The notes below the pieces were generated by a model, which saw only the letters and a program-made list of their open reading frames with translations, did no database searches and had not been told where the DNA came from. A program made the translations under genes and the position numbers. From IMG/VR virus record IMGVR_UViG_3300025789_000018: a stretch of 64,000 bases of DNA; one strand, written 5' to 3'. Below are positions 1-64,000 of the stretch, piece after piece. This stretch comes from a virus. Its lineage: Duplodnaviria; Caudoviricetes. How positions within the stretch are numbered: position 1 is the stretch's first letter; each line of letters starts with the position of its first letter.

Positions 1-619
1 CAGCTTCAACAGCTTCCGTGATTTCGATCATTTTGTTCTGAGCGATTTCAGGAAAGTTGAAGTCAATGTCGATTTCGTAGGTAGGAAAAGTATCGATGTT
101 ATAGATGTGATATTCAGGATAATGAATATCAAACTCACCGACAGGAAGCCAGCGAGTAGTTTCATCAGCAAAGACGACCTTCACTGCAAACACAACAAAC
201 ATCTTGTCCAGACCAGTAAGAGCAACACCCTTTTGGATATTACCACCGCACCATTCTCCAAACACTGCAACTTTGGTAATAATCTGATCAGGTAAAAAGA
301 TTTCAATCATAGCTTGATCGACAACATCACGAATAACTTCTTCATGCTTCATCATAGCAAGCATGAAGCCAGCGTTATCAGAAGTCAAAGACAGTTCACG
401 TTCACGCGACTGGTAGCTAATAGTGTCGGTGGCAACGTCATACACGATACCAGCATTGGTACCATGCAGCTTGACAGTACCATAAAACTTCAGCGTAGGA
501 AGCGGGCGAGAATGATCATACACAGCATTGCCATCAGCATCCTTGCCAGCATACCGCGTATGGTTCTTGACATGATGAATCGTGGAACGGAACTGTTCGA
601 TAGAAGGAAACTTAAACAA
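1..619 (-). CDS. RNA ligase 2 (Rnl2)-like nucleotidyltransferase, 3' end runs off the window
   Basis: Not in the ORF track; manual translation from TTG at 619 (AAGGAG SD 7 nt upstream): MFKFPSIEQFR...GTVKLHGTNAGI (motif I KxHGxN)...VFGEWCGGNIQKG (motif III). Frame stays open to position 1. Confidence 0.8.
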   Translation of the reverse strand, partial: MFKFPSIEQFRSTIHHVKNHTRYAGKDADGNAVYDHSRPLPTLKFYGTVKLHGTNAGIVYDVATDTISYQSRERELSLTSDNAGFMLAMMKHEEVIRDVVDQAMIEIFLPDQIITKVAVFGEWCGGNIQKGVALTGLDKMFVVFAVKVVFADETTRWLPVGEFDIHYPEYHIYNIDTFPTYEIDIDFNFPEIAQNKMIEITEAVEA

Positions 620-803
620 GTGCAATCTCCTTTTCTTTGCATGGCATATTATGCCCCGTATTAAAATCTACGATATATGGAAAGGGCTGCCATTCTTCTA
701 GAACATCAATAACTTTGCCTACTTGAAGTTCATCAACTTCAGCACCAATGTTTTGAACAGCATATACACTATCACCAATCTTAAACATAATCTTCATCCT
801 CAA
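612..803 (-). CDS. hypothetical protein
   Basis: 63-aa ORF co-oriented and overlapping its neighbours. Confidence 0.55.
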   Translation of the reverse strand: MRMKIMFKIGDSVYAVQNIGAEVDELQVGKVIDVLEEWQPFPYIVDFNTGHNMPCKEKEIALV

Positions 804-1770: not shown

Positions 1771-1799
1771 ATACTACCTTAACCGGACTGAGAAGTCAA
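1771..1799 (-). promoter_or_regulatory. sigma70-type early promoter
   Basis: TTGACT-17-TAGTAT upstream of the ATPase. Confidence 0.6.
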
Positions 1800-2263
1800 G
1801 TGATATATTTGATGTTCGTAAACCCTTCGCCATTGCTCGGAGGAACATAAGAATCTCGCATCCTATCGATAGCATCTTGAGGAATATTCTTTCCTGGCCG
1901 AGAATTCAGTCGGCGCTGCCATTCATCCCAACTTGGAGTAGCGAACACAACAGCATCGATCTGATAATCATATGGCTTTAGGAAATTGATATACTTCGCT
2001 CGACTCTTTTGGCTGAGGTTTGTACGATCGATGACGAAATCAACACCTTCATCAACAGACCACTGAATGTGTTTCCACATAACAGTCTCGGCAAACTTAA
2101 TAAGATCTTTGAATCCCTCATTGTATGTCATGTTGTATATGTTAGAGACATACTCAATAACAGTATCAGTAGACATGACATTAGCCATGGGATCGTGGTG
2201 TTTAATCCATGTTGACTTCCCAGAAGCAGGTACACCGATAAGGATAGTACAGGTCTTAGTCAT
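1796..2263 (-). CDS. polynucleotide-kinase-type (AAA_33) P-loop kinase, stand-alone kinase domain
   Basis: GVPASGKST Walker A, STD, VIDRTNLS...R motifs as in the T4 PseT kinase domain; no phosphatase domain. Confidence 0.75.
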   Translation of the reverse strand: MTKTCTILIGVPASGKSTWIKHHDPMANVMSTDTVIEYVSNIYNMTYNEGFKDLIKFAETVMWKHIQWSVDEGVDFVIDRTNLSQKSRAKYINFLKPYDYQIDAVVFATPSWDEWQRRLNSRPGKNIPQDAIDRMRDSYVPPSNGEGFTNIKYIT

Positions 2264-2423: not shown

Positions 2424-2562
2424 CTTTGTTCTCCAACCGCTGCTTGATGATAGCAATCGTTTCATCAAGAAACTCGTGAGAAGAGGTGCCATCCATCTTA
2501 ATCATAAACTTTGCAAGTTCAAGACGATCAAGTGCAAGTTTTAAAAGTTCTCTATCAGTCAT
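2416..2562 (-). CDS. hypothetical protein
   Basis: 48 aa from MTDRELL, coupled to the ligase stop. Confidence 0.5.
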   Translation of the reverse strand: MTDRELLKLALDRLELAKFMIKMDGTSSHEFLDETIAIIKQRLENKDV

Positions 2563-3124
2563 TATAAGCCAATCCCGGAAACCAAGCATCACGAATGGCT
2601 TCATACTTTGCCGTGCGACCAAGGTTATTACGGATCGTATTGCGAACAGTATCATAGACCTTAGACTTATCTTCCCAACAACTAAACACCGTAGAACGAG
2701 TGTACTGATCAAAGTTAGGAGCAATATCTAGAGCAAAAGTTTTACGATCTATACCCTCATCTTCAATCCGTTCTAGGATATGTTCAATAGAAAGACATTT
2801 AAATGCAACTTCAATGTTGTAATAATGCTCAAACTCAGACAGCCGATCACGATCTTCGGCAGGCAGATGAGCCTTGATGTCATCCAGCTTTTCATCCAGA
2901 ATGATTTCAACGATGTTGCGATCTTGTAGAATTGCTTCCTTTGCACGATGAATCTGGAGATACCACTGACACTTCAATTTCAACATATGTCCATCATCAA
3001 AGCGAACCACGAATCCTTCAAGGTCTTCCAGATCACGAACGTATTCAAGGAAAGCCTTCATATCATTCTGAGGTTCGAATGCACGAACTACAGGGATATT
3101 ATATCGAGAAATAAGATTAAACAT
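2555..3124 (-). CDS. rnlA: RNA ligase 1 (T4 gp63/RnlA-like), C-terminal fragment
   Basis: EGFVVRFDDGHMLKLKCQWY = motifs IV and V (T4 [20 protein letters not shown]); ATG at 3124 overlaps the stop of the upstream small ORF. Confidence 0.8.
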   Translation of the reverse strand: MFNLISRYNIPVVRAFEPQNDMKAFLEYVRDLEDLEGFVVRFDDGHMLKLKCQWYLQIHRAKEAILQDRNIVEIILDEKLDDIKAHLPAEDRDRLSEFEHYYNIEVAFKCLSIEHILERIEDEGIDRKTFALDIAPNFDQYTRSTVFSCWEDKSKVYDTVRNTIRNNLGRTAKYEAIRDAWFPGLAYND

Positions 3125-3332
3125 TATGAAATTCCGATTCTTCAATATGGAACTGAGGTACCCAGTCACCTACATTTTCTCCGACATCGCGCATCACGTC
3201 AATCCAATCTTGGGACTTCTCACGCTCCCAATCACCTGCAGCTTTCGCGGCATCATAGGTTTCATACACTCCAAACACATACCGATCGCCGTTATAATCA
3301 GTTTCGTCCTTGATAAGTACAAAAACTTTCAT
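3117..3332 (-). CDS. hypothetical protein inside the ligase-splitting cassette
   Basis: 71 aa MKVFVLIKDE..., GGAG SD, directly downstream of a TTGACA/TATACT promoter. Confidence 0.65.
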   Translation of the reverse strand: MKVFVLIKDETDYNGDRYVFGVYETYDAAKAAGDWEREKSQDWIDVMRDVGENVGDWVPQFHIEESEFHNV

Positions 3333-3356
3333 GTCAATCTCCATTCCTTATAGTTT

Positions 3357-3385
3357 AGTATACCACGGTTTTGGAAAAATGTCAA
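3357..3385 (-). promoter_or_regulatory. sigma70-type early promoter driving the small ORF and ligase C-fragment
   Basis: TTGACA-17-TATACT. Confidence 0.8.
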
Positions 3386-3392
3386 CTATTTT

Positions 3393-3460
3393 TATAAATA
3401 AGATGGCTGTCGCGGTATCCCCATACCCACAGCCTCTAACGCTAAACAGGAGCATCAGCT
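3393..3460 (+). promoter_or_regulatory. T4 late promoter plus conserved structured leader of the endonuclease
   Basis: TATAAATA, then stem GGCTGT/ACAGCC enclosing CGC-GGTAT-CCCC-ATACC-C, then TCTAA and AGGAG; same architecture at 11852-11914. Confidence 0.7.
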
Positions 3461-4087
3461 ATGGGTATTTATTGTACGTATCTTATCACATATAAAGGCA
3501 ACAAACTGCCGCCATTCTATATCGGATCGTCTAATATTAATAGATTAGAAGAAGGATACAGAGGAAGTGTATCTTCTGTTAGATATGGTAAGATATGGAA
3601 ACAAGAATTAAAAGAAAATCCTCATCTATTTAAATATCATATAATCACTACTCATGATACTAGAAAAGAAGCAACAGAAAAAGAACTTCAACTACAAATA
3701 ACCTTTAAGGTCATGCACAACCCAATGTATATTAATGAATCATATGCTAGAATTAATGGAGTTCATGGGTTATCTTTATCTGGTAAGAATCATTGGTCTA
3801 AACAACCAGGAAAACTTCATAATGCTAAGATAAACCATCCTAGAGGAATGCTTGGTAAGAAACATACAGATGAATTTAAGCAATTTATTTCAGAAGTTCA
3901 AATTGGTGAAAAGAATCACTTTTATGGAAAGAAACATTCACCCAAAGCTTTAGAGAAAATGAGAATAGCGGCATCAAATACCATATGGATTACCAATGGT
4001 ATAGATTCAACTCGACATCCTAAAGATGCCGCTATTCCAGAAGGTTGGTTTAGAGGTCGTCGCTTAAAGAAGCATATTGACCAGTAA
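3461..4087 (+). mobile_element. free-standing GIY-YIG homing endonuclease (Seg-like) with NUMOD3-type modules, antisense to the host gene
   Basis: IYCTYLIT...FYIGSS...YRGS N-terminus; GMLGKKHTDE and FYGKKHSPK NUMOD3 repeats. Confidence 0.85.
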
Positions 4088-4682
4088 CCATATGACGAAT
4101 AGCAGTTAATGTTAGAGTAGGTTCTTTACCATAATCAATTACAATACGCTTTTGAGGATGCATCCATTCAAAAATTGGAGTGTGTCCGTTATTAATTACA
4201 TCCCAGCAAAATGCTTCATAATCAATATCTGACAACTTTACAAATTGTTTAATCATTTCATGAAAATCTTGAGCAACCATTTTGGTGCCCCAGATAAGTT
4301 TACCTTCATGAGCAAAAACTGAGCACATTGATCCGTCTAGCTTCTCAAGGATAGCATGAGGGCGCGAAAGATCAATGACATGCTCCTGCGTCTCCTCACG
4401 CTCATTCACATTGAAGAACTTGTGGAAAGGACGACGGATGATGTCACCAGTCTTGGAGTCGAAGATGATACCACGAAGTTCGCGACGAATCTTAGCATTA
4501 AAGTTCGTAATTGGTATCCCAGAGATAGTAGTAGAGTTTACATCAGGAAACGTATCAGCCATCATCACGTTGTAGTTGATGACGGTATATGACCCTTTAT
4601 CGGCGACTACAAACTCATCGCGACCTTCAATGGCAGGCAGCACATCAGCGATGTTGGTGATGTGGGGAAATTCATAATTCAT
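4050..4682 (-). CDS. rnlA: RNA ligase 1 (T4 gp63/RnlA-like), N-terminal fragment
   Basis: RELRGIIF, RPFHKFFNVNE, motif I EKLDGS, TPIFEW, LTAIR; stops prematurely inside the antisense endonuclease gene. Confidence 0.85.
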   Translation of the reverse strand: MNYEFPHITNIADVLPAIEGRDEFVVADKGSYTVINYNVMMADTFPDVNSTTISGIPITNFNAKIRRELRGIIFDSKTGDIIRRPFHKFFNVNEREETQEHVIDLSRPHAILEKLDGSMCSVFAHEGKLIWGTKMVAQDFHEMIKQFVKLSDIDYEAFCWDVINNGHTPIFEWMHPQKRIVIDYGKEPTLTLTAIRHMVTGQYASLSDDL

Positions 4683-4705
4683 TATATATCCTTTCAATTA
4701 CGCTT

Positions 4706-6895: not shown

Positions 6896-7371
6896 TATGC
6901 ATCCTCCGAACCATAAGCATACTCATCATCGTATTCATCATATTCATCATATTCATCTTCATCATAGTCGGGATTGGTATCAACTACCAAATCACCGAAA
7001 TAGATCTTACCGGGACGCTGTTCATGCGGGTCCGTATACCCAGTCTCAAACGGATCATGGAATGTATGAACGTTACCGAGATTAAGGTTTTTGCGCTCAT
7101 CTTCAGCAATATCGCTGACGCGAATGCATCCGATCAGTCCAGCATCAACGCCGTAGCTGTTTCCGTAGTTGTCTTCATATTGACCATCGCCCCAAGCAGT
7201 GCCATACGAAGCGAAACGAGTACCATCTTCAAGAACAAACTCACCATCAACACAATCATAACCGTTGATGGTCTTATCGCATACCTTATCCCAGCGATCG
7301 TGCATCACATACGCCAAATCGCCCACATAGTAGATTCCTGCCGTCATAGTCATAAGAAATTCCTTCCACAC
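6895..7371 (-). CDS. hypothetical protein with acidic tail
   Basis: 158 aa; YYVGDLxYV...TxxGDG...VDAGLIG motif. Confidence 0.7.
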   Translation of the reverse strand: MWKEFLMTMTAGIYYVGDLAYVMHDRWDKVCDKTINGYDCVDGEFVLEDGTRFASYGTAWGDGQYEDNYGNSYGVDAGLIGCIRVSDIAEDERKNLNLGNVHTFHDPFETGYTDPHEQRPGKIYFGDLVVDTNPDYDEDEYDEYDEYDDEYAYGSEDA

Positions 7372-7392
7372 TACATTTCACACTACAATTGC

Positions 7393-7421
7393 ATTATACT
7401 CTTATAACAATTAAAAGTCAA
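7393..7421 (-). promoter_or_regulatory. sigma70-type early promoter
   Basis: TTGACT-17-TATAAT. Confidence 0.8.
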
Positions 7422-7430
7422 GTTGTTTTA

Positions 7431-7706
7431 TTATGACTCAGGTTCTGTTTTAGCCTTGAACCCAAGAGCAGCGCCACCACCAGCAAGAGTTCCACCAAGA
7501 CCAAGACCATATTCGCTTGCTTTGAATGCGTTATGTAAAATAACAGTATCATAGACAGCAAGACCAAAAAAGATCAAGACGCCAATAGCCCAAAGGATAC
7601 GGCCAATATCTGGTGTGTGGTTATCTTTACCTGTGAAGGTAAGAACAAAGAAAGATTCTATTGATTTAAGCATTTCATTCCCCGTCAACAATGAACGATA
7701 GTCCAT
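7431..7706 (-). CDS. small membrane protein (2 TM)
   Basis: Hydrophobic segments ILWAIGVLIFFGLAV and GLGLGGTLAGGGAALGF. Confidence 0.6.
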   Translation of the reverse strand: MDYRSLLTGNEMLKSIESFFVLTFTGKDNHTPDIGRILWAIGVLIFFGLAVYDTVILHNAFKASEYGLGLGGTLAGGGAALGFKAKTEPES

Positions 7707-8085
7707 TATTTAGGGATACGCGCTTGGGTAAAGAAGTCCCTGCAGGAAACACAACTCTGTATTCTTTATCATCTAACATAAAATTGATTATAGTATCGTT
7801 ACCGAGATACTTTTCTGGCAACAAAATCTTACTTGTGTTCTTGCTTATAAATCTATAATATCTATCTTCTTTGCCACTTGGGACGAATTTTGGTTTCTGC
7901 TGTATATAATGTTTTTGTAAAAAGGTAAATGCATCATTAACAAGACGAAAATCATTTATTGCTGTCTCTGCTTTGTTGTGATCTGGATGATACTTAAGAG
8001 CCATCTTTCGATAGCTCTTTTTTATTTCTTCAAGACTATTTGTGGGTGTGCAACTCAGCAAAGAATATGCGATATTATGATTCAT
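7675..8085 (-). CDS. DnaJ J-domain protein
   Basis: EIKKSYRKMALKYHPDHN (HPD motif), FRLVNDAF. Confidence 0.85.
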   Translation of the reverse strand: MNHNIAYSLLSCTPTNSLEEIKKSYRKMALKYHPDHNKAETAINDFRLVNDAFTFLQKHYIQQKPKFVPSGKEDRYYRFISKNTSKILLPEKYLGNDTIINFMLDDKEYRVVFPAGTSLPKRVSLNNGLSFIVDGE

Positions 8086-8245: not shown

Positions 8246-8471
8246 AAAGTTCTTTAATACATTCCAAGAGAATACCAAAAGTAGCAGGCAACATTGCAAA
8301 TTGAGCAACAATATTAGATTCTTTATCTACTATTTGAATAGCGAGACTATCCGATTTAGTATCATCATCAAAGATGAGATCACCGAACGCAACAGTAACA
8401 GCGCCGCCAGAAGGAGTGGCTTTTGTTACATCTTTGATGCCAACAAACTTTTTACTTTTCATTTCTACCAC
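8229..8471 (-). CDS. hypothetical protein
   Basis: ORF track, co-oriented. Confidence 0.5.
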   Translation of the reverse strand: MVEMKSKKFVGIKDVTKATPSGGAVTVAFGDLIFDDDTKSDSLAIQIVDKESNIVAQFAMLPATFGILLECIKELYEHSE

Positions 8472-8770
8472 TCCGGACCAAAAGTTTCATCGGTCTTTTT
8501 ATAAACAACAAACCAATCACAACCATAGGCAGGACACACATGAATTGTCTCTGGCAAACGATTAGCATCCTTGCCACCACCTTCACCACAGATGAAGTAA
8601 CGATCACCAAGTTTTTCTGCTAGAATGGTGTGATCGATAAGACTATGAAACTTACGAAGATGTTCTAGTTCACCTTCATAGGCTTCTACTTGAAGTTTAT
8701 TATTAGAAAAATACTCTTCCATTTTCTCTTCAAATGAGTCATCATGAATATCAGGCACAATTGCCTCCAT
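8465..8770 (-). CDS. hypothetical protein
   Basis: 101 aa; FICGEGG...LPExIxVCPAYG motif. Confidence 0.65.
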   Translation of the reverse strand: MEAIVPDIHDDSFEEKMEEYFSNNKLQVEAYEGELEHLRKFHSLIDHTILAEKLGDRYFICGEGGGKDANRLPETIHVCPAYGCDWFVVYKKTDETFGPEW

Positions 8771-8966
8771 GTTCTTTTACAAACTCATTATGCGCTTTGA
8801 GGTTTTGTTCGACAACCCATTGAAAGACTTTCTTGGCACCTTCCTTATTGATAGTGCCATCGATCATGGCGCAGACAATCTTCGCTTCCTGTTCCAGTAG
8901 AATAGGACACTTTAGAAACTTTTCTAGCCACTTTTCAAAGTCTTTAGTTTCAGATTCAGTCATCAA
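8751..8966 (-). CDS. hypothetical protein
   Basis: ORF track, coupled. Confidence 0.55.
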   Translation of the reverse strand: MMTESETKDFEKWLEKFLKCPILLEQEAKIVCAMIDGTINKEGAKKVFQWVVEQNLKAHNEFVKEHGGNCA

Positions 8967-23167: not shown

Positions 23168-23250
23168 AAACTGTTTAGAAGAACACACAGGAGTAAGCAT
23201 CCTGCTTTTTAAGCTACACCGTGAGAACCTGTGTATTCATCAAAATAGAT

Positions 23251-23399
23251 TGGTGGGAGCGGCGGGACTCGAACCCGCACGGTCAAAAGACCACAAGATT
23301 TTAATAGGCGAGGATTCCGGATTCGCACCGTCAGTCTTACTGATCTACGCTTTCGCGCTTTCCTCGGTCTCGGGCGTCTACCAATTCCGCCACGCTCCC
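23251..23399 (-). tRNA. tRNA-Leu(UAA) interrupted by a 62-nt structured intervening sequence (23305-23366)
   Basis: 5' half GGGAGCG-TG-GCGGAATTGGTAGACGC-C-CGAGA-C; 3' half TTAAAA-TCTTG, variable arm GGTC-TTTT-GACC, GCGGG-TTCGAGT-CCCGC, CGCTCCC-A-CCA; joining the halves restores loop CTTAAAA. Confidence 0.85.
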
Positions 23400-26057: not shown

Positions 26058-26148
26058 TGGTGCGCCCGTCGAGACTTGAACTCGAACCAACCCCTAATCT
26101 GGGCATCCGGGATATAAATCCGGTCGTGCTACCTTACACTACAAGCGC
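26058..26148 (-). tRNA. atypical tRNA, best read as Ile(UAU), long variable arm
   Basis: Acceptor GCGCTTG/CGGGCGC, CCGG-A-TTTATAT-C-CCGG anticodon arm, about 21-nt variable arm, TCGAG-TTCAAGT-CTCGA, CCA. Confidence 0.65.
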
Positions 26149-33842: not shown

Positions 33843-34853
33843 TTACAACTTACAAGAATCGCAATCAACCTCAGCTTCGTCAACCATACTTATGGGTAAT
33901 GGCTTATCTTCCATTTCTCCAGCACCATCATTAGTGTTGAAGTAGTATAAAGTCTTACCACCATATTTATAGTGCATAAGGATATGCCCAAGGATTTCAG
34001 ACATGGGAATTTTATTATCAGGATAATGTGTTGGATTATATGATGTGTTGACCGATATGGCCTGATCAATAAACTTCTGCAACACAGCCATGATCTTCAG
34101 ATAGCCTTCGGGTGATTTCTGGTCCCATAGCAATTCGTATTTATTCTTTAGTGTACGGATACCAGGTACGACCTGCTTTAGTACACCATCCTTAGACTGC
34201 TTAATTGATACAAGCGCGCGAGGTGGTTCAATACCATTTGTTGAATTACTTATCTGAGCTGATGTCTCTGCTGGCATGAGTGCCATTAGAGTAGAGTTAC
34301 GAATACCAACCGTAGCTGCACGAAGAGCAAGACTGTCCCAATCCATCTTATAGTTTGGTTGAACTAGTTCATCGACTTCCTTCTTGTATGTATCAATAGG
34401 CATGATTCCACCTGAGTAAAGCGTATCAGTATGCTTAGGACATGGATCTACTTCTTCTGCCAAGTCGACCGAGGCTTTGATAAGATAATAACTCCATGCT
34501 TCAGCATACTCATGCACAAGATCGAGATCTGGATCAGAGTAACTGCTATCATTACGAGCCAGCCAATAAGCAAAATTAATGATGCCGATGCCAAGAGGAC
34601 GACGGTTGCGAGTACCAATAGCAGCGGCTCTAACAGGATAGTCTTGATAATCCAGTAGGGCATCCAGAGCGCGTACAGCAATGGTGCATGGCTTTTCGAA
34701 GTCAGCTGGCTTTCTAATCTTTCCCCAATTGATCGCACTTAACGTACACAACGATATTTCTGATTTACAATCAGATTCGAAAACTTCTGTAACATAAACA
34801 TGTTCCTTATCTTTAGTGTCGATACTGTCGACAATTTCATATTTAAAATCCAT
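33843..34853 (-). CDS. nrdA: ribonucleotide reductase alpha subunit, C-terminal fragment (NrdA-b) with novel N-terminal tail
   Basis: About 31-aa non-RNR tail then EISLCTLSAINWG, RRPLGIG, RNSTLMALMPAETS, KTLYY, C-terminal CDSCKL. Confidence 0.93.
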   Translation of the reverse strand: MDFKYEIVDSIDTKDKEHVYVTEVFESDCKSEISLCTLSAINWGKIRKPADFEKPCTIAVRALDALLDYQDYPVRAAAIGTRNRRPLGIGIINFAYWLARNDSSYSDPDLDLVHEYAEAWSYYLIKASVDLAEEVDPCPKHTDTLYSGGIMPIDTYKKEVDELVQPNYKMDWDSLALRAATVGIRNSTLMALMPAETSAQISNSTNGIEPPRALVSIKQSKDGVLKQVVPGIRTLKNKYELLWDQKSPEGYLKIMAVLQKFIDQAISVNTSYNPTHYPDNKIPMSEILGHILMHYKYGGKTLYYFNTNDGAGEMEDKPLPISMVDEAEVDCDSCKL

Positions 34854-35448
34854 TTTGTTTCCTTAAATGCTTTGCTAGATTCCCCAGATCCCATTCACGG
34901 CGGCAGCACACACAACAGGCTTTCTTTCCTTGTAAGTGTTTCGTGCCATTGGGCTGTTTTTTAAGATTATACTTACCGCGTTTCTTTCCTAATTTTGCTA
35001 ACCGCATCTTTTCTTTAGTTTCATCTGACGCCTTGACAACACCGACTAAACCTTTATTCCAGGCTTTTTGACCCATATGACCTAAAGAATTGTTGATTCT
35101 ATGTTCCGTCGATTGCGGACCTATCTTTCTACCTTTAGTTTTTATACTCATGGCGGCATAATCTCTAAAAGCAGACGTATCTCCACCACTTCCATTTTCT
35201 TCAATAAAATTAGCCCAGTTAGGAGAATTAACCACATCCCATAATTTGGAATAGTATAACCCTTGTTCTTTTATTTCTAATATATCATCAGATTGAAATA
35301 GAATCTCTGTCTCAATATCTTTACCATATTTGTTCAGTTCTCTTTTCCATCTCTTCCCTGAACCCAGGTATTCGAACGGATTTTGTTCTGTCTTACCAAG
35401 ATATTTAAGTCCAGTAACTTTATGCGTTTTAACATATAGTGTAATCAT
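34843..35448 (-). mobile_element. GIY-YIG homing endonuclease splitting nrdA
   Basis: LYVKTH..TGLKYLGKT...Y.GSG..W; NUMOD-like GQKAWNKGL and ETKEKMR.AKLGK. Confidence 0.88.
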
Positions 35449-35476
35449 AGTAGTGTTCTCCTCACTACTATTTATA
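35448..35476 (-). promoter_or_regulatory. late promoter overlapping an RBS/start-sequestering hairpin
   Basis: TATAAA-TAGTAGTG-AGGAGAA-CACTACTA-TG: 8-bp stem, SD in the loop, A of ATG in the stem. Confidence 0.8.
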
Positions 35477-35478
35477 CT

Positions 35479-36933
35479 TTATCTGCTTTTAATTGGGGTG
35501 TTTAGATTATTTTTCTTCCATTCAAGATATTTTTGATACTCTTCTTTAGTCATTTTCATTGTTTTGACTACTGGGGCACCATCATTAATATCCTTTAAAG
35601 GTGTGGTGGGAAGTGTAATTTCCGCGCAGAGATTGCTCATCTTGATCAATGCCTTCTTTTTGTCAAATGAACCATGATCATTGGCATGGTCAACATTCAT
35701 CAGATAGATTCGTCCTGTATCTTTTCGCTCCTGAGCGAAGGCGCTGAATAGATCAATTGCAGGGATGCTTTTCTTTCTGATCTTTCCATTTCGTTCATAC
35801 TTCTCGTAAAGAGTACGGAACTTCTCAACATCAGAAAAGAATGCCTGGTAGAGATCCGGGCAGTCATGAGGTGAAAAGAGGGTGATATTACCTCCAGAAA
35901 GAAGTCTTTCATACATTACCTTATTAAACTGCACGCCATAATCAAGATGACGAACTCGGTTATCTTCAGTACCCTTATTGTTCTTAAGTACCAGAAGATC
36001 TTCTACTTCTAGATGCCAAATGGGATAATAGAGAGTAGCTGCCCCACCCCGAACCCCACCTTGGCTGCAGGATTTAACAGATGATTGCCAAAGACGATAA
36101 TAAGGAACAACGCCAGTAGTAATAACAGAACCATTACGAACAGGGCTATTAACGGCACGAAGACTGCCGCCGCCAATACCAATACCAGCTTTGTTAGCAA
36201 CGTATCTACCGATAGCCGTAGCACTAGCAAAAATCGAGTTAAGCGAGTCATCCGATTCGATGAGAACGCAGGAAGAGAATTGGCGGTCTGGAGTACGGAC
36301 ACCAGCCATAATAGGAGTAGGAAGGCTAATGTCGAATAGAGATAATGCATCATAAAGTTCCTTTACCCACTTAGTGCGGTCTGTTTTATAGTTCTGAAAA
36401 AGAGTCATGGCAATCAACATGAACGCCATCTGAGGCGTTTCATAAAACTGGCCAGTTTCTCTCGATTTTACTAGATACTTTCCACGAAACTGCTCCATTG
36501 CAGCATAGGTAAGAAGATTGTCTCGAGTATGATCAATGTATTTTCCAAGGTCAATCCATTCTTCATGACTATATGCAGTGTTTAGCTGCGGATCATAATA
36601 TCCAGCGCGCATAACAGCATCATAATGCATTAGTAGTGAATTTGGCTCATACTGACCATAAACTTGCTTACGAAGATTATAGTTGATTAGGCGACCAGCA
36701 ACGTATTGGTAATTAGGAGCGTCTTCATCAATAAGATCAGCAGCAGCCTTAATAAGAGTTTCCTGAATATCAGAAGTCTTAATTCCATTATAAAACTGAA
36801 TATGCGTCTTAATTTCAAGATCTGAAACAGAAACACCAGCCAAACCTTCACACGCAAATTCAGCTACTTTATGGAACTTATTAAGATCTAGCGTCTCTTT
36901 AGTTCCATCGCGCTTAATCACAAAAATCGTCAT
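35479..36933 (-). CDS. nrdA: ribonucleotide reductase alpha subunit, N-terminal fragment (NrdA-a) with novel C-terminal tail
   Basis: ATP cone VIKRDG, PTPIMAGVRT, QFSSCVL, QGGVRGG, SNLCAEITLPT, then about 33-aa non-RNR tail and stop. Confidence 0.95.
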   Translation of the reverse strand: MTIFVIKRDGTKETLDLNKFHKVAEFACEGLAGVSVSDLEIKTHIQFYNGIKTSDIQETLIKAAADLIDEDAPNYQYVAGRLINYNLRKQVYGQYEPNSLLMHYDAVMRAGYYDPQLNTAYSHEEWIDLGKYIDHTRDNLLTYAAMEQFRGKYLVKSRETGQFYETPQMAFMLIAMTLFQNYKTDRTKWVKELYDALSLFDISLPTPIMAGVRTPDRQFSSCVLIESDDSLNSIFASATAIGRYVANKAGIGIGGGSLRAVNSPVRNGSVITTGVVPYYRLWQSSVKSCSQGGVRGGAATLYYPIWHLEVEDLLVLKNNKGTEDNRVRHLDYGVQFNKVMYERLLSGGNITLFSPHDCPDLYQAFFSDVEKFRTLYEKYERNGKIRKKSIPAIDLFSAFAQERKDTGRIYLMNVDHANDHGSFDKKKALIKMSNLCAEITLPTTPLKDINDGAPVVKTMKMTKEEYQKYLEWKKNNLNTPIKSR

Positions 36934-37096
36934 CAGTAACCCTTCTGTATAATTTATCAACTTTTTGTTCTAGCTTATTTATTCTAGCTAGAAGGTGCGG
37001 AACACAACTATGAACCTGATACTCACCATCTTTGATCTCTTGGTTGCAGAGAGAACAACTTATTTTACTCTCTGTATAAATGAAGTCACGAATCAT
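36914..37096 (-). CDS. hypothetical protein
   Basis: 60-aa ORF with CxxC. Confidence 0.5.
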   Translation of the reverse strand: MIRDFIYTESKISCSLCNQEIKDGEYQVHSCVPHLLARINKLEQKVDKLYRRVTDDDFCD

Positions 37097-62478: not shown

Positions 62479-63027
62479 TCAATTATTAGCATCATGTATA
62501 ACAGTATTTATATAACTCACAATGGTATTTTGCTCATCATACGTATTATTTTCTAGGTGTTCTATGATAAACAGCAGATTAAGATTACTCAAAATATTAG
62601 CAACCTTAGTTTCTCTACCTCGCAACCAGGTTTCATCTTGGTTGCTGCCTCGACTTTCATATCTCAATTCTCTTTCTTTCTTTTGAGTAGAAAGATAAAT
62701 TATAGAAAGATCGAAGTTATCGTTACAATGCTCTAAGAAAGAGTTGTTGAATAGCCTATCGCCTTCAAACAAAACAATAGAATTGTCAGGAATAGAAGAT
62801 AGAAATTTTATAGCTTCTGGCTGAACCGCCATACTCATTCTATCAGTTCCAGCAAACACCTGATCATCTTCATATTTACCTAGAACATATAGATTATCTT
62901 TCTGATGGTAAGGAACCAATTTGAAATCATCTTTGAACTCATCAATTTTATATTGATCAATTATCTTTCTCATAAGAGTAGATTTGCCAGCTCCAGGCTC
63001 TCCACCAATTGCAATAATCTTAACCAT
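62479..63027 (-). CDS. P-loop nucleotide kinase of base-modification clusters
   Basis: GGEPGAGKST, LGKY...FAGTDRMSM.V, FEGDRL, R..RGS.Q. Confidence 0.7.
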   Translation of the reverse strand: MVKIIAIGGEPGAGKSTLMRKIIDQYKIDEFKDDFKLVPYHQKDNLYVLGKYEDDQVFAGTDRMSMAVQPEAIKFLSSIPDNSIVLFEGDRLFNNSFLEHCNDNFDLSIIYLSTQKKERELRYESRGSNQDETWLRGRETKVANILSNLNLLFIIEHLENNTYDEQNTIVSYINTVIHDANN

Positions 63028-64000
63028 AGAACATCTCCAATCCTTGTTTTACTTCTCCTTCATCAGAGAACATCCAATTCAGCTTTTCTATTTTACCTGT
63101 ATTAAGAAAAGAAGTAAACTTATTTTTATCAATCTTATTAGTAAGCAGTCTGTTATCTAGGGACTCTTGGCGAGCTTGCCAAAGAACATTCCACTCAATA
63201 CCAGGCCAGTTATCTTCTTCTAGTTGAAATATTTCTTCAGCTTGCCTATCCAAATAATATCCCAAATACCTGCCATGTTTTTCTCTAAAGATTTTCTTAA
63301 AAGAACAAAGGCAAGTTTCCATAGTATAGTAGTTAGCTTCTGATGCTAGATGCGGAAATCTAGTTTTGATTTCAACAAGAATATCTTTTGCTTCTGCTTC
63401 TAAATATGAATATTCTTTTTGTGTCAACTTAGTATCAATCCAATCTGATCGATCAAGCGCCAGCAAAAAGCCATTACGGTGAGAACGACTGCCAGAATAG
63501 TCAGAAAGCATAAGGCTGGTTGGTTCAAGAATAAGACCTGCAGTGCTATGTAAAGACTGCATGTAAAACCAAGTAGTGTATCTTCCAAACTTATGAAACT
63601 CTTTGTTTACAACATTCCAAACATTGTCAAAATTCTGAGATTCATTATCCCCATAATAATTCTCTAGAACTTCTTTTTGAGAAGAGTTTCCTACAAACTT
63701 TTGATAGGACTCAAACATAGAAGGCAAATGCCCCTTGTTGTATTTGGTATCAGTTTGATAACGGAGTCTTTTATAATTTGCAGTGTTCCATTGACTGATT
63801 CTGTCTACAGTTGCAAGCTCGTAGTCGGGAAATTCATTCTTAAGGACCCACGAAGTAGGAAGATAATATGTGTTGGCATATAGCCAGCAAAGCCATACTC
63901 TCTCTTCGCTATTATGCTCATACCTGTTATTAAGATAATTCATCATCCAAATGGCAGGATCGCAATCTTTATACTCTAAAGACCACGCATACCATCGGAT
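63020..64000 (-). CDS. aGPT-Pplase2 / amino-acid:DNA transferase-like protein (5' end off the window)
   Basis: Frame open to 64000 (..KDCDPAIWMMNY..); WLY..TY, FGRYT.WFY.Q.L, SGS.SHRNG, ETCLC.FKK, Y.GYY.DRQ..EI. Confidence 0.7.
   Translation of the reverse strand: MRWYAWSLEYKDCDPAIWMMNYLNNRYEHNSEERVWLCWLYANTYYLPTSWVLKNEFPDYELATVDRISQWNTANYKRLRYQTDTKYNKGHLPSMFESYQKFVGNSSQKEVLENYYGDNESQNFDNVWNVVNKEFHKFGRYTTWFYMQSLHSTAGLILEPTSLMLSDYSGSRSHRNGFLLALDRSDWIDTKLTQKEYSYLEAEAKDILVEIKTRFPHLASEANYYTMETCLCSFKKIFREKHGRYLGYYLDRQAEEIFQLEEDNWPGIEWNVLWQARQESLDNRLLTNKIDKNKFTSFLNTGKIEKLNWMFSDEGEVKQGLEMFYG

Follow-up and report, generated by a model that had tools for sequence, protein, structure and literature searches.

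Short conserved introns in tRNA genes of phages have been reported from the Lak megaphages, where these 'enigmatic' elements vary in presence and absence, fall into no class of Rfam and are in one case predicted to be tRNA-like (Devoto et al. 2019, PMC6784885). The element described here has several features in common with them: it is short and highly conserved, it interrupts a phage tRNA in its anticodon region, it is absent from some relatives and it, too, belongs to no Rfam class. The Lak introns, however, come from megaphages of gut Prevotella and interrupt tRNAs for Thr, Tyr and others, whereas the present insert is found in tRNA-Leu(UAA) only, and no shared sequence could be shown between the two. 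Furthermore, the four-way junction of the present family is well defined and its T-loop hairpin does not vary, whereas the Lak paper contains neither a covariation analysis nor a mechanism (PMC6784885). An earlier note on this locus, made from its letters, had called the intron new. This has to be qualified. Our literature searches returned no mechanism and no description of this family, but short enigmatic introns of phage tRNAs had already been reported (PMC6784885). The insert can be placed among the short conserved phage-tRNA introns of the Lak type, a descriptive class without defined mechanism, so that this assignment says little on function.

In cyanobacteria and plastids the tRNA-Leu(UAA) gene harbours a group I intron of more than 200 nt; it is built on a P1–P9 core, ends in a G and has its 5' splice site marked by a U-G pair. 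Such introns, like the present insert, are mobile in principle and often associated with homing endonucleases. The insert described here is located in the same gene and the same loop, and in two of its four variants most likely at position 34/35; in contrast to the group I intron it has a length of only 62–71 nt and lacks the core, the U-G pair and the terminal G. A second point of comparison is the tRNA repair of phage T4, in which a break set by the PrrC nuclease in a tRNA anticodon loop is countered by Pnkp and Rnl1. The last step which we propose below, the sealing of an anticodon-loop nick by an Rnl1-type ligase, would be the same. The break in T4, however, is an attack of host defence by which nothing is removed, whereas here a programmed excision is proposed. 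With FMN riboswitches and T-loop modules the insert has hairpin 3 alone in common: one FMN riboswitch (L114) holds the same 16 nt as this hairpin, and the Rfam models for FMN, cobalamin and tRNA gave no match to the insert. Finally, in collaborative homing, reportedly described by Bonocora and Shub in 2009, a self-splicing group I intron without endonuclease in a protein gene is served by a neighbouring free-standing endonuclease gene. The present insert, likewise without endonuclease, adjoins a free-standing HNH gene in two lineages, and the exon pattern of the window and L001, a contig with a near-identical insert, resembles co-conversion; but this adjacency is missing in two of four lineages.

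An interrupted tRNA-Leu(UAA) gene in a freshwater phage

The window, by which we mean the whole stretch of 64,000 nt that was analysed, has a G+C content of 40%. It encodes T4-type replication proteins (DNA polymerase B, a gp41-like helicase, UvsX, a clamp-loader subunit and T4 RNase H) as well as ribonucleotide reductase, ThyX, PhoH and several homing-endonuclease-like genes. We read it as an uncultured freshwater T4-like myovirus. No close phage relative of it was found in the INPHARED collection. The stretch is present in many freshwater metagenome runs; an identical copy of the locus lies on a contig of a 2020 pond run, whereas most of the runs that contain it are freshwater runs from 2017, which speaks for persistence.

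On the minus strand, 8 nt downstream of a tRNA-Phe gene and in a cluster that holds 20 further tRNA genes, the window contains a class II tRNA-Leu(UAA) gene of 149 nt with encoded CCA (Table 1). Its 5' part consists of the acceptor strand GGGAGCG, U8 and G9, a D arm like that of E. coli tRNA-Leu, the anticodon-stem strand CGAGA and C32. Then follows the insert of 62 nt, and after it UUAAAA, UCUUG, a variable arm in the form of a long hairpin, the T arm GCGGG/CCCGC, the 3' strand of the acceptor stem, A73 and CCA. The boundaries of the insert are unambiguous in the window, since the preceding base differs from the insert's last base and the insert's first base differs from the following one. 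When run with its intron option, ARAGORN calls a tRNA-Leu(taa) with intron i(34,62), that is, at gene position 34 and with a length of 62. The exons joined in silico give 87 nt which are again called as tRNA-Leu(taa), and the predicted exon-exon junction reads CGAGAC-UUAAAAUC. By contrast with these calls, the interrupted gene was missed by default ARAGORN and by the Rfam tRNA model. As features of a class II tRNA-Leu(UAA) we took a 7-bp acceptor stem, a long variable arm, a Leu-type D loop, a 7-nt anticodon loop with U33 and UAA, A73 and CCA; after removal of the 62 nt the exons have all of them. Sequence reading and the ARAGORN calls agree with the earlier note, according to which 62 nt are inserted between C32 and U33 and their removal restores the 7-nt loop CUUAAAA. 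The closing stem of 6 bp with three hairpins, which had been drawn there, is found again in the minimum free energy fold of the 149-nt RNA, and in this fold the tRNA arms are kept as well. The interrupted gene is the sole Leu(UAA) tRNA of the cluster; UUA and UUG together account for 22% of the Leu codons in 18 long genes of the window.

Table 1. Location in the window of the interrupted tRNA-Leu(UAA), of the parts of its insert and of genes for candidate sealing and healing enzymes
Feature	Position	Strand	Evidence
Whole interrupted tRNA-Leu(UAA)	23251..23399	-	sequence reading; ARAGORN with introns; call of the spliced form
5' exon: acceptor 5' strand, D arm, anticodon-stem 5' strand, C32	23367..23399	-	anticodon arm identical to intron-less IMG/VR tRNA-Leu(UAA)
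Intervening sequence, 62 nt, four-way junction	23305..23366	-	model R1, 90.3 bits; homologues L001, L016, L005; covariation
Closing stem P1, 5' strand CGAGGA, pairs with 23309-23314	23361..23366	-	3 of 6 pairs compensatory across lineages
Hairpin 1, GCGC-GAAA-GCGU, preceded by conserved linker AA	23347..23358	-	3 of 4 pairs compensatory; G-U closing pair in 4 of 4 variants
Hairpin 2, UCAGU-AAG-ACUGA, preceded by invariant linker AGA	23331..23343	-	partial pair support
Hairpin 3, CGG-UGCGAAU-CCG, T-loop-type loop	23318..23330	-	with flanks identical in 4 of 4 variants
Closing stem P1, 3' strand UCCUCG, preceded by invariant linker GAA (23315-23317)	23309..23314	-	covariation
Single-stranded 3' tail of the insert, CCUA, 4 nt	23305..23308	-	sequence reading; variable in relatives
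3' exon: U33, anticodon UAA, A37, A38, anticodon-stem 3' strand, variable arm, T arm, acceptor 3' strand, CCA	23251..23304	-	sequence reading; call of the spliced form
Rnl1, N-terminal half; candidate sealing enzyme (putative link)	4050..4697	-	PF09511, E 4.9e-25
Rnl1, C-terminal part	2555..3169	-	PF20819, E 6.9e-5
NUMOD3 endonuclease gene between the Rnl1 parts	3461-4087	+	NUMOD3, E 1.8e-11
P-loop kinase (AAA_33) of polynucleotide-kinase type; candidate enzyme for healing of 5' ends (putative)	1796..2263	-	PF13671, E 7.4e-20
Rnl2-type RNA ligase, gene runs off the window	2..625	-	PF09414, E 4e-13

Homologues, fold and covariation

By pattern scans, a near-identical insert was found in five contigs of IMG/VR or JGI (L001–L004 and L019). 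Diverged inserts occur in L016 and in L005, which equals L009 and L017 and represents a phage of 455 kb rated as complete. Together this gives a family of four distinct sequences from approximately three lineages, with an insert length of 62–71 nt and all located in anticodon loops of tRNA-Leu(UAA) of large phages that are unrelated to one another. Exact and gapped patterns applied to viral, metagenome and genome collections returned the same four variants only; what else came up was discarded as chance matches, the FMN riboswitch mentioned above (L114) or a tandem partial tRNA-Leu (L015). No second copy of the insert was found elsewhere in the window or elsewhere in the 455-kb carrier. In the pattern scan a partial module outside any tRNA was seen at L016:6610-6654.

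A covariance model (R1) was built from three of the sequences, and all four were then re-aligned to it. Searches with this model found homologues in independent phage contigs with E values from 1e-20 to 5e-7, among them the fourth sequence, which lies outside the three-sequence seed (E 5e-7), and nothing convincing beyond the four variants. In the model-guided alignment 92% of the cells are paired and 7 of 16 pairs show a compensatory change on both sides, although the inserts of the window and L001 are near-identical and the covariation thus rests on few events. When the partners were slid by 1–3 columns as a control, pairing fell to 20–46%, and 0 of 500 shuffles attained the observed covariation score. 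RNAalifold as an independent method recovered P1, hairpin 1 and hairpin 3. These changes show that the predicted fold of the insert has been conserved by compensation. A covariance search across phage tRNAs had been proposed in the earlier note, and it has been answered in the positive for covariation.

The individual helices behave differently. The closing stem P1 is found as CGAGGA/UCCUCG, UCGGA/UCCGA and GGAGA/UCUCC. The stem of hairpin 1 varies freely, and its loop reads GAAA in the window, AAAA in L016 and UUAG in L005. Of the two hairpin caps pointed out in the earlier note, the GNRA tetraloop is therefore present here but not conserved, whereas the T-loop-type hairpin is invariant in all four variants. 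The latter, hairpin 3, is conserved together with its flanks (A before and GAAUC after, altogether 19 nt), and the linkers AA and AGA are invariant too. Its loop UGCGAAU, closed by a G-C pair, fits the T-loop pattern in having U and A at positions 1 and 5, respectively, plus two extra bases. Hairpin 2 has a length of 13–19 nt and keeps a core of 2–5 bp, in which one pair is compensatory, but the outer pair is lost in three of four variants; of the stem originally drawn, it is the core of 2–3 pairs which persists. The 3' tails of the inserts are CCUA, AGCU or AGAA, and none of them is CCA-like. Hairpin 1 is closed by a G-U pair in each of the four variants. On the opposite strand this would become a C-A mismatch, and a pair which is valid in one strand only favours an RNA made in tRNA sense. 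We have little doubt that the insert is a real, selected and structured RNA element.

With its four helices and a T-loop-type hairpin the insert has itself a cloverleaf-like topology. But the linkers AGA and GAA are not tRNA-like, the T stem would have 3 bp and the tails are non-CCA; furthermore, the insert gave no tRNA call with ARAGORN (standard, relaxed or mitochondrial settings) and no match to the Rfam tRNA model at E up to 10. Among the motifs considered by eye, the letters needed for a hammerhead core or HDV-like fold, for a C/D-box guide, for an aptamer of the cobalamin or FMN type and for an RNase E consensus at the 3' junction are not conserved among the variants, and all of these were rejected.

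The exons have changed in a similar way. Between the window and L001, 8 of 14 positions of the acceptor stem differ and form four compensatory pairs, with no difference at the other 73 exon positions; the two inserts differ at 4 of 62 positions, two of which form one compensatory pair. Between the tRNAs of L005 and L016 compensatory changes are seen at the anticodon stem (A-U to G-C), at the T stem and at two pairs of the variable arm, and no pair is broken. Since the exons covary as well, tRNA and insert have evolved together under structural selection. The covarying homologues and the compensatory changes in the exon stems argue against simple decay, as the earlier note had done on other grounds. 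It had also allowed for a tRNA pseudogene, with no homologous inserts anywhere; homologues were found in other phage lineages.

The four spliced forms produced in silico are all called as tRNA-Leu(taa). The letters of the anticodon loop are split 1+6 (C and UUAAAA) in the window and L001 but 3+4 (CUU and AAAA) in L005 and L016. They nevertheless sum to CUUAAAA in every lineage, which is the loop of the uninterrupted relatives, whereas the adjoining tails of the insert vary. Because this total is kept despite a different split and next to variable tails, the exons are presumably joined in the RNA. As judged from these sequence data, it is more likely than not that the insert is excised and a working tRNA results.

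Insertion sites and mobility

In the window and in L001 the insertion site is unambiguously 32/33. One repeated letter leaves two choices in L005, 33/34 or 34/35, of which ARAGORN picks 34/35, and likewise in L016, 34/35 or 35/36. The tRNAs of L005 and L016 belong to the same lineage, and a single insertion site is the simplest assumption for both. The position of the insert, for which conservation had been proposed as a further check, thus differs within the family (32/33 versus 34/35, ±1). This also qualifies a contrast drawn in the earlier note, namely that group I introns in this tRNA sit at 34/35: it is correct for the window with its site at 32/33, but two of the homologues are most likely inserted at 34/35.

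Uninterrupted tRNA-Leu(UAA) genes with the same anticodon arm are present on other IMG/VR contigs. Those of the L001 type have the acceptor, anticodon and T arms in common with their interrupted counterpart, those of the L005 type the D and anticodon arms; all intron-less genes found are homologues, not syntenic orthologues. An intron-less orthologue with the variable arm of the window was found neither in genome contigs nor among 71 IMG/VR tRNA-Leu(UAA) loci, and none of the contigs of four freshwater/pond runs that were compared with the locus joins across the insert. The occurrence of one insert core in two tRNA-Leu lineages, at two loop positions and in a T4-like as well as a 455-kb phage implies horizontal movement. 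The differing sites and the uninterrupted homologues with the same anticodon arm point to a mobile element.

A possible way of movement is suggested by the window and L001, in which the interior of the gene is identical while the acceptor stems are foreign to each other and match other tRNA-Leu lineages. We infer from this pattern a gene conversion, by which a further tRNA-Leu gene may have received the insert and approximately 30–45 nt of the exon sequence next to it. Directly upstream of the interrupted tRNA in L001 lies an HNH gene, at 8270-8782, whose end falls inside this tRNA; its homologue in L005, at 7197-7823, stops 3 nt short of the interrupted tRNA. No such neighbour is present at the genes of the window and L016, and the window contains no homologue of this HNH. 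Paralogues of the HNH gene occupy several other gaps between tRNA genes. As a sign of homing the adjacency is only suggestive. At the DNA level, the element would spread by recombination between tRNA-Leu genes, and the free-standing HNH endonucleases which crowd these tRNA clusters probably help in this.

Proposed excision and sealing, and the alternatives

Our reading of the whole is that of a selected intervening sequence which is removed according to its own fold and sealed by RNA ligases of the phage, a statement for and against which we see about equal weight. More tentative, with somewhat less than even prospects, is the specific route in which protein endonucleases cut and a ligase rejoins. 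In such a process, the insert would be removed from the precursor by cuts whose places are set by its own structure. Measured from the core of 5 bp in the closing stem, the 5' cut would fall one nt ahead of it and the 3' cut five nt behind it in all lineages, a uniformity that needs chosen boundaries, namely 34/35 in L005 and 35/36 in L016 (in each case one of the two allowed). This geometry would leave a flush 5' end and a tail of 4 nt on a stem of six positions, the outermost of which is C-G or G·A. It recalls the way in which tRNA ends are defined by RNase P and 3'-processing enzymes, and the cutting might be done by host tRNA-processing enzymes or by some phage or host RNase. Cuts of the RNase P/3'-processing kind would give 3'-OH and 5'-P ends, which a ligase of the Rnl1 or Rnl2 type could seal directly; recognition of the insert by RNase P/Z-type enzymes becomes less compelling because it has no tRNA score and no CCA-like tail. 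The tRNA halves would then be rejoined in the anticodon loop by the Rnl1- or Rnl2-type ligase, with kinase and phosphoesterase taking part if the ends need healing.

The enzymes named in the earlier note, Rnl1, Rnl2 and a polynucleotide-kinase-like kinase, are indeed encoded by the phage, as domain matches in the window confirm (Table 1). The Rnl1 gene of the window is split by an endonuclease gene and may be inactive. A metallophosphoesterase gene is located inside the tRNA cluster of the window, and the 455-kb carrier possesses one Rnl1 and three Rnl2 genes. RNA ligases and kinase are, however, common in T4-like and jumbo phages without such inserts. As they are this widespread in large phages, their presence shows a capacity and is not a proof.

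One alternative is that the insert is a new small ribozyme, which cleaves at one or both boundaries or self-splices and would leave 2',3'-cyclic phosphate and 5'-OH ends for the kinase, phosphoesterase and ligase of the phage to heal and seal. The pattern of an invariant purine-rich junction (AA, AGA, A and GAA) and an invariant T-loop hairpin amid freely covarying stems is that of a catalytic or tertiary core, but a protein-binding site would equally show an invariant core. An insert that tolerates different loop positions and very different phages carries its own determinants; on the other hand, a single fold of 62 nt would have to serve both sites, and the letters at the boundaries are not conserved between lineages. 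The kinase, metallophosphoesterase and ligases of the window would suit cyclic-phosphate ends. Against a ribozyme also speaks that Rfam searches at E up to 10 with permissive filters gave no ribozyme match, be it hammerhead, twister, twister-sister, hatchet, pistol, hairpin or HDV-like. We consider this alternative unlikely. Distinctly unlikely is its stronger form, a new class of self-cleaving or self-splicing ribozyme in which the 62-nt four-way junction excises itself from anticodon loops of tRNAs at places that its own fold determines and the tRNA is rejoined by the heal-and-seal enzymes of the phage or by the RNA itself. If this is true, the self-splicing introns known so far would all be far larger.

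It is also improbable that the insert is never removed. The 149-nt RNA, a tRNA body with a new head, might then divert anticodon nucleases or other tRNA-binding defence proteins as a decoy or sponge, might accept leucine without decoding or might be a regulatory RNA. Such functions would suit the intact tRNA body with its CCA, the conserved folded domain which the insert forms and the finding that no splicing machinery specific to the insert came to light. Bacterial LeuRS does not read the anticodon and Leu identity is independent of it, so that charging would be compatible with the interruption, and a gene resembling class I aminoacyl-tRNA synthetases is located close upstream of the interrupted tRNA-Leu in the 455-kb phage. 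But it is hard to explain without joining why the split letters equal the loop of an uninterrupted tRNA-Leu(UAA) while the tails vary, and the cluster of the window has no other Leu tRNA with a UAA anticodon.

Very improbable is a selfish DNA insertion that inactivates the tRNA gene and persists only because it destroys the target of a homing endonuclease or because it is recent, the hairpins acting in the DNA. The tRNA clusters are full of HNH and GIY-YIG genes and contain other rearranged tRNA-Leu genes, and the failure to find an intron-less orthologue would fit as well. However, compensatory changes arose in the exon stems after the insertion (L005 versus L016, and window versus L001), the conserved G-U pair is valid only in sense RNA, the T-loop motif, which does not vary, is a module of RNA tertiary structure, and CCA and all Leu features have been kept.

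The two classical intron types were compared by their defining features. A bulge-helix-bulge intron, as cut by the splicing endonuclease of archaea and eukaryotes, has two 3-nt bulges with the splice sites and a helix of 4 bp between them. The junctions of the window are placed differently, the 5' one directly next to the closing stem and the 3' one within a single strand of 10 nt, so that the earlier note was right in seeing no such motif there. A loose version with 3 bp exists in L005 and L016, where CUU of the exon is able to form pairs with an AAG close to the insert's 3' end and the junctions come to lie in the flanking bulges; these bulges, however, are of 1–2 and 5–6 nt instead of 3 and 3, and the window and L001 have no CUU/AAG helix. 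Moreover, neither a tRNA-intron endonuclease (EndA/Sen, PF01974) nor RtcB was found in the complete 455-kb carrier, and we know of no EndA in bacteria. For a group I intron we required the P3–P9 core of Rfam, a length of approximately 200 nt or more, a U in front of the 5' splice site that pairs with a G in P1, and a terminal G. Although 34/35, the most likely site in L005 and L016, is the classical one of group I introns in tRNA-Leu(UAA), the 62 nt of the insert are far below any group I core, and the group I models gave no match at E up to 10 for the locus and up to 0.1 for the related loci. The last exon base of the window is C32, not U, and its insert ends in A, those of L005 and L016 in U or A. 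The rejection of a group I intron in the earlier note, which had rested on the shortness, is thus extended by the Rfam result and the missing terminal G. We regard it as extremely improbable that the insert is a bulge-helix-bulge intron or a decayed group I intron.

Returning to a selected insert which is excised by its own fold and sealed by phage ligases, the family is, on the sequence evidence, a barely described kind of phage tRNA intron, distinct by its four helices, its invariant T-loop hairpin, its restriction to tRNA-Leu(UAA) and its two sites. It offers a compact object for tests, with 149 nt, four natural variants, two insertion sites and intron-less controls. Since standard tRNA finders miss such genes, the tRNA repertoires of phages and the estimates of codon supply derived from them are incomplete. 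To our knowledge, only self-splicing introns, those of group I and II, are ascribed to bacteria and their viruses, and protein-dependent tRNA splicing is taken as a trait of archaea and eukaryotes. A selected insert in working phage tRNA genes that does not belong to group I would imply either an unrecognised bacterial splicing route which makes use of processing and repair enzymes, or a new small ribozyme. Either route would give the RNA ligases and the kinase of phages a routine job beyond the repair of damage inflicted by host defence.

Split genes and a putative DNA modification gene in the window

Two genes in the window, which derives from an uncultured T4-like freshwater phage, are each divided into two ORFs (see the table of features). 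The first is predicted to encode an RNA ligase of the Rnl1 type, a candidate for sealing tRNA halves, and its two ORFs are separated by a NUMOD3 endonuclease gene. The second codes for the large subunit of ribonucleotide reductase; here the parts are separated by a 201-aa ORF, for which a Pfam search gave no match, and the split could be due to an endonuclease insertion or to an intron. Adjoining the clamp-loader genes there is furthermore an amino acid:DNA transferase-like gene (PF18724), which suggests DNA hypermodification.

Location of features in the window and in related phage contigs
Feature	Sequence	Position	Strand	Remarks
Rnl1-type RNA ligase, two ORFs	window	2555-4697		PF09511 half 4050-4697; C-terminal domain 2555-3169
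NUMOD3 endonuclease gene	window	3461-4087	plus
Spacer 3' of tRNA-Leu	window	23170-23250		80 nt
tRNA-Ile(UAU)	window	26058-26148
tRNA-Ile(UAU)	L001	4081-4171
tRNA-Ile(UAU)	L016	9456-9554
Ribonucleotide reductase large subunit, two ORFs	window	33843-36960		parts 35479-36960 and 33843-34853
201-aa ORF	window	34843-35448
PF18724 gene	window	63020-63946
Partial insert module	L016	6610-6654
Synthetase-like gene	L005	5444-6709		421 aa
HNH endonuclease cassette	L005	6886-7826
Tandem tRNA-Leu	L015	8960-9100

tRNA-Ile and putative RNA elements accompanying the interrupted tRNA-Leu

Three of the phage lineages having the tRNA-Leu insert (the window, L001 and L016) also keep a tRNA-Ile(UAU) of 91–99 nt with a long extra arm of two hairpins, a class II shape which is unusual for tRNA-Ile. 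The spacer following the window's tRNA-Leu contains a 7-bp hairpin (ACACAGG/CCUGUGU) and has the short motifs GATGAAT and TTCTTCTAA-CAGTTT in common with the L001 spacer; with these features, it could represent a small RNA or else serve as a signal for processing.

In L016, upstream of tRNA-Pro and not inside any tRNA, an incomplete copy of the conserved module of the insert is found (AAAG followed by a short hairpin, by AGA and by CGGUGCGAAUCCGGA), scoring 23 bits with the covariance model of the insert, R1. This is either a decayed insert copy or a piece of another structured RNA.

Rearrangements at tRNA-Leu genes

In the 455-kb phage L005, the HNH cassette lies immediately 5' of the interrupted tRNA-Leu and is flanked by an 18-nt duplicate of the 5' end of this tRNA (ATGCCCACTTGGCGGAAT). 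This duplication looks like the footprint of an endonuclease-gene invasion in the D-loop region. About 1.1 kb upstream of the same tRNA, L005 encodes a protein resembling class I aminoacyl-tRNA synthetases; it belongs to PF00133/PF09334 and contains a KMSKS motif. In contig L015 a truncated tRNA-Leu 5' half directly precedes a complete tRNA-Leu(UAA), the acceptor stem of which is the same as in the window. Finally, in five IMG/VR loci (L041, L072, L073, L090 and L101) the part of tRNA-Leu(UAA) before the D loop is replaced by unrelated sequence (GCAGTTCACCGCAGGTAAT...), suggesting a second, distinct hot spot for interruption of this tRNA gene.
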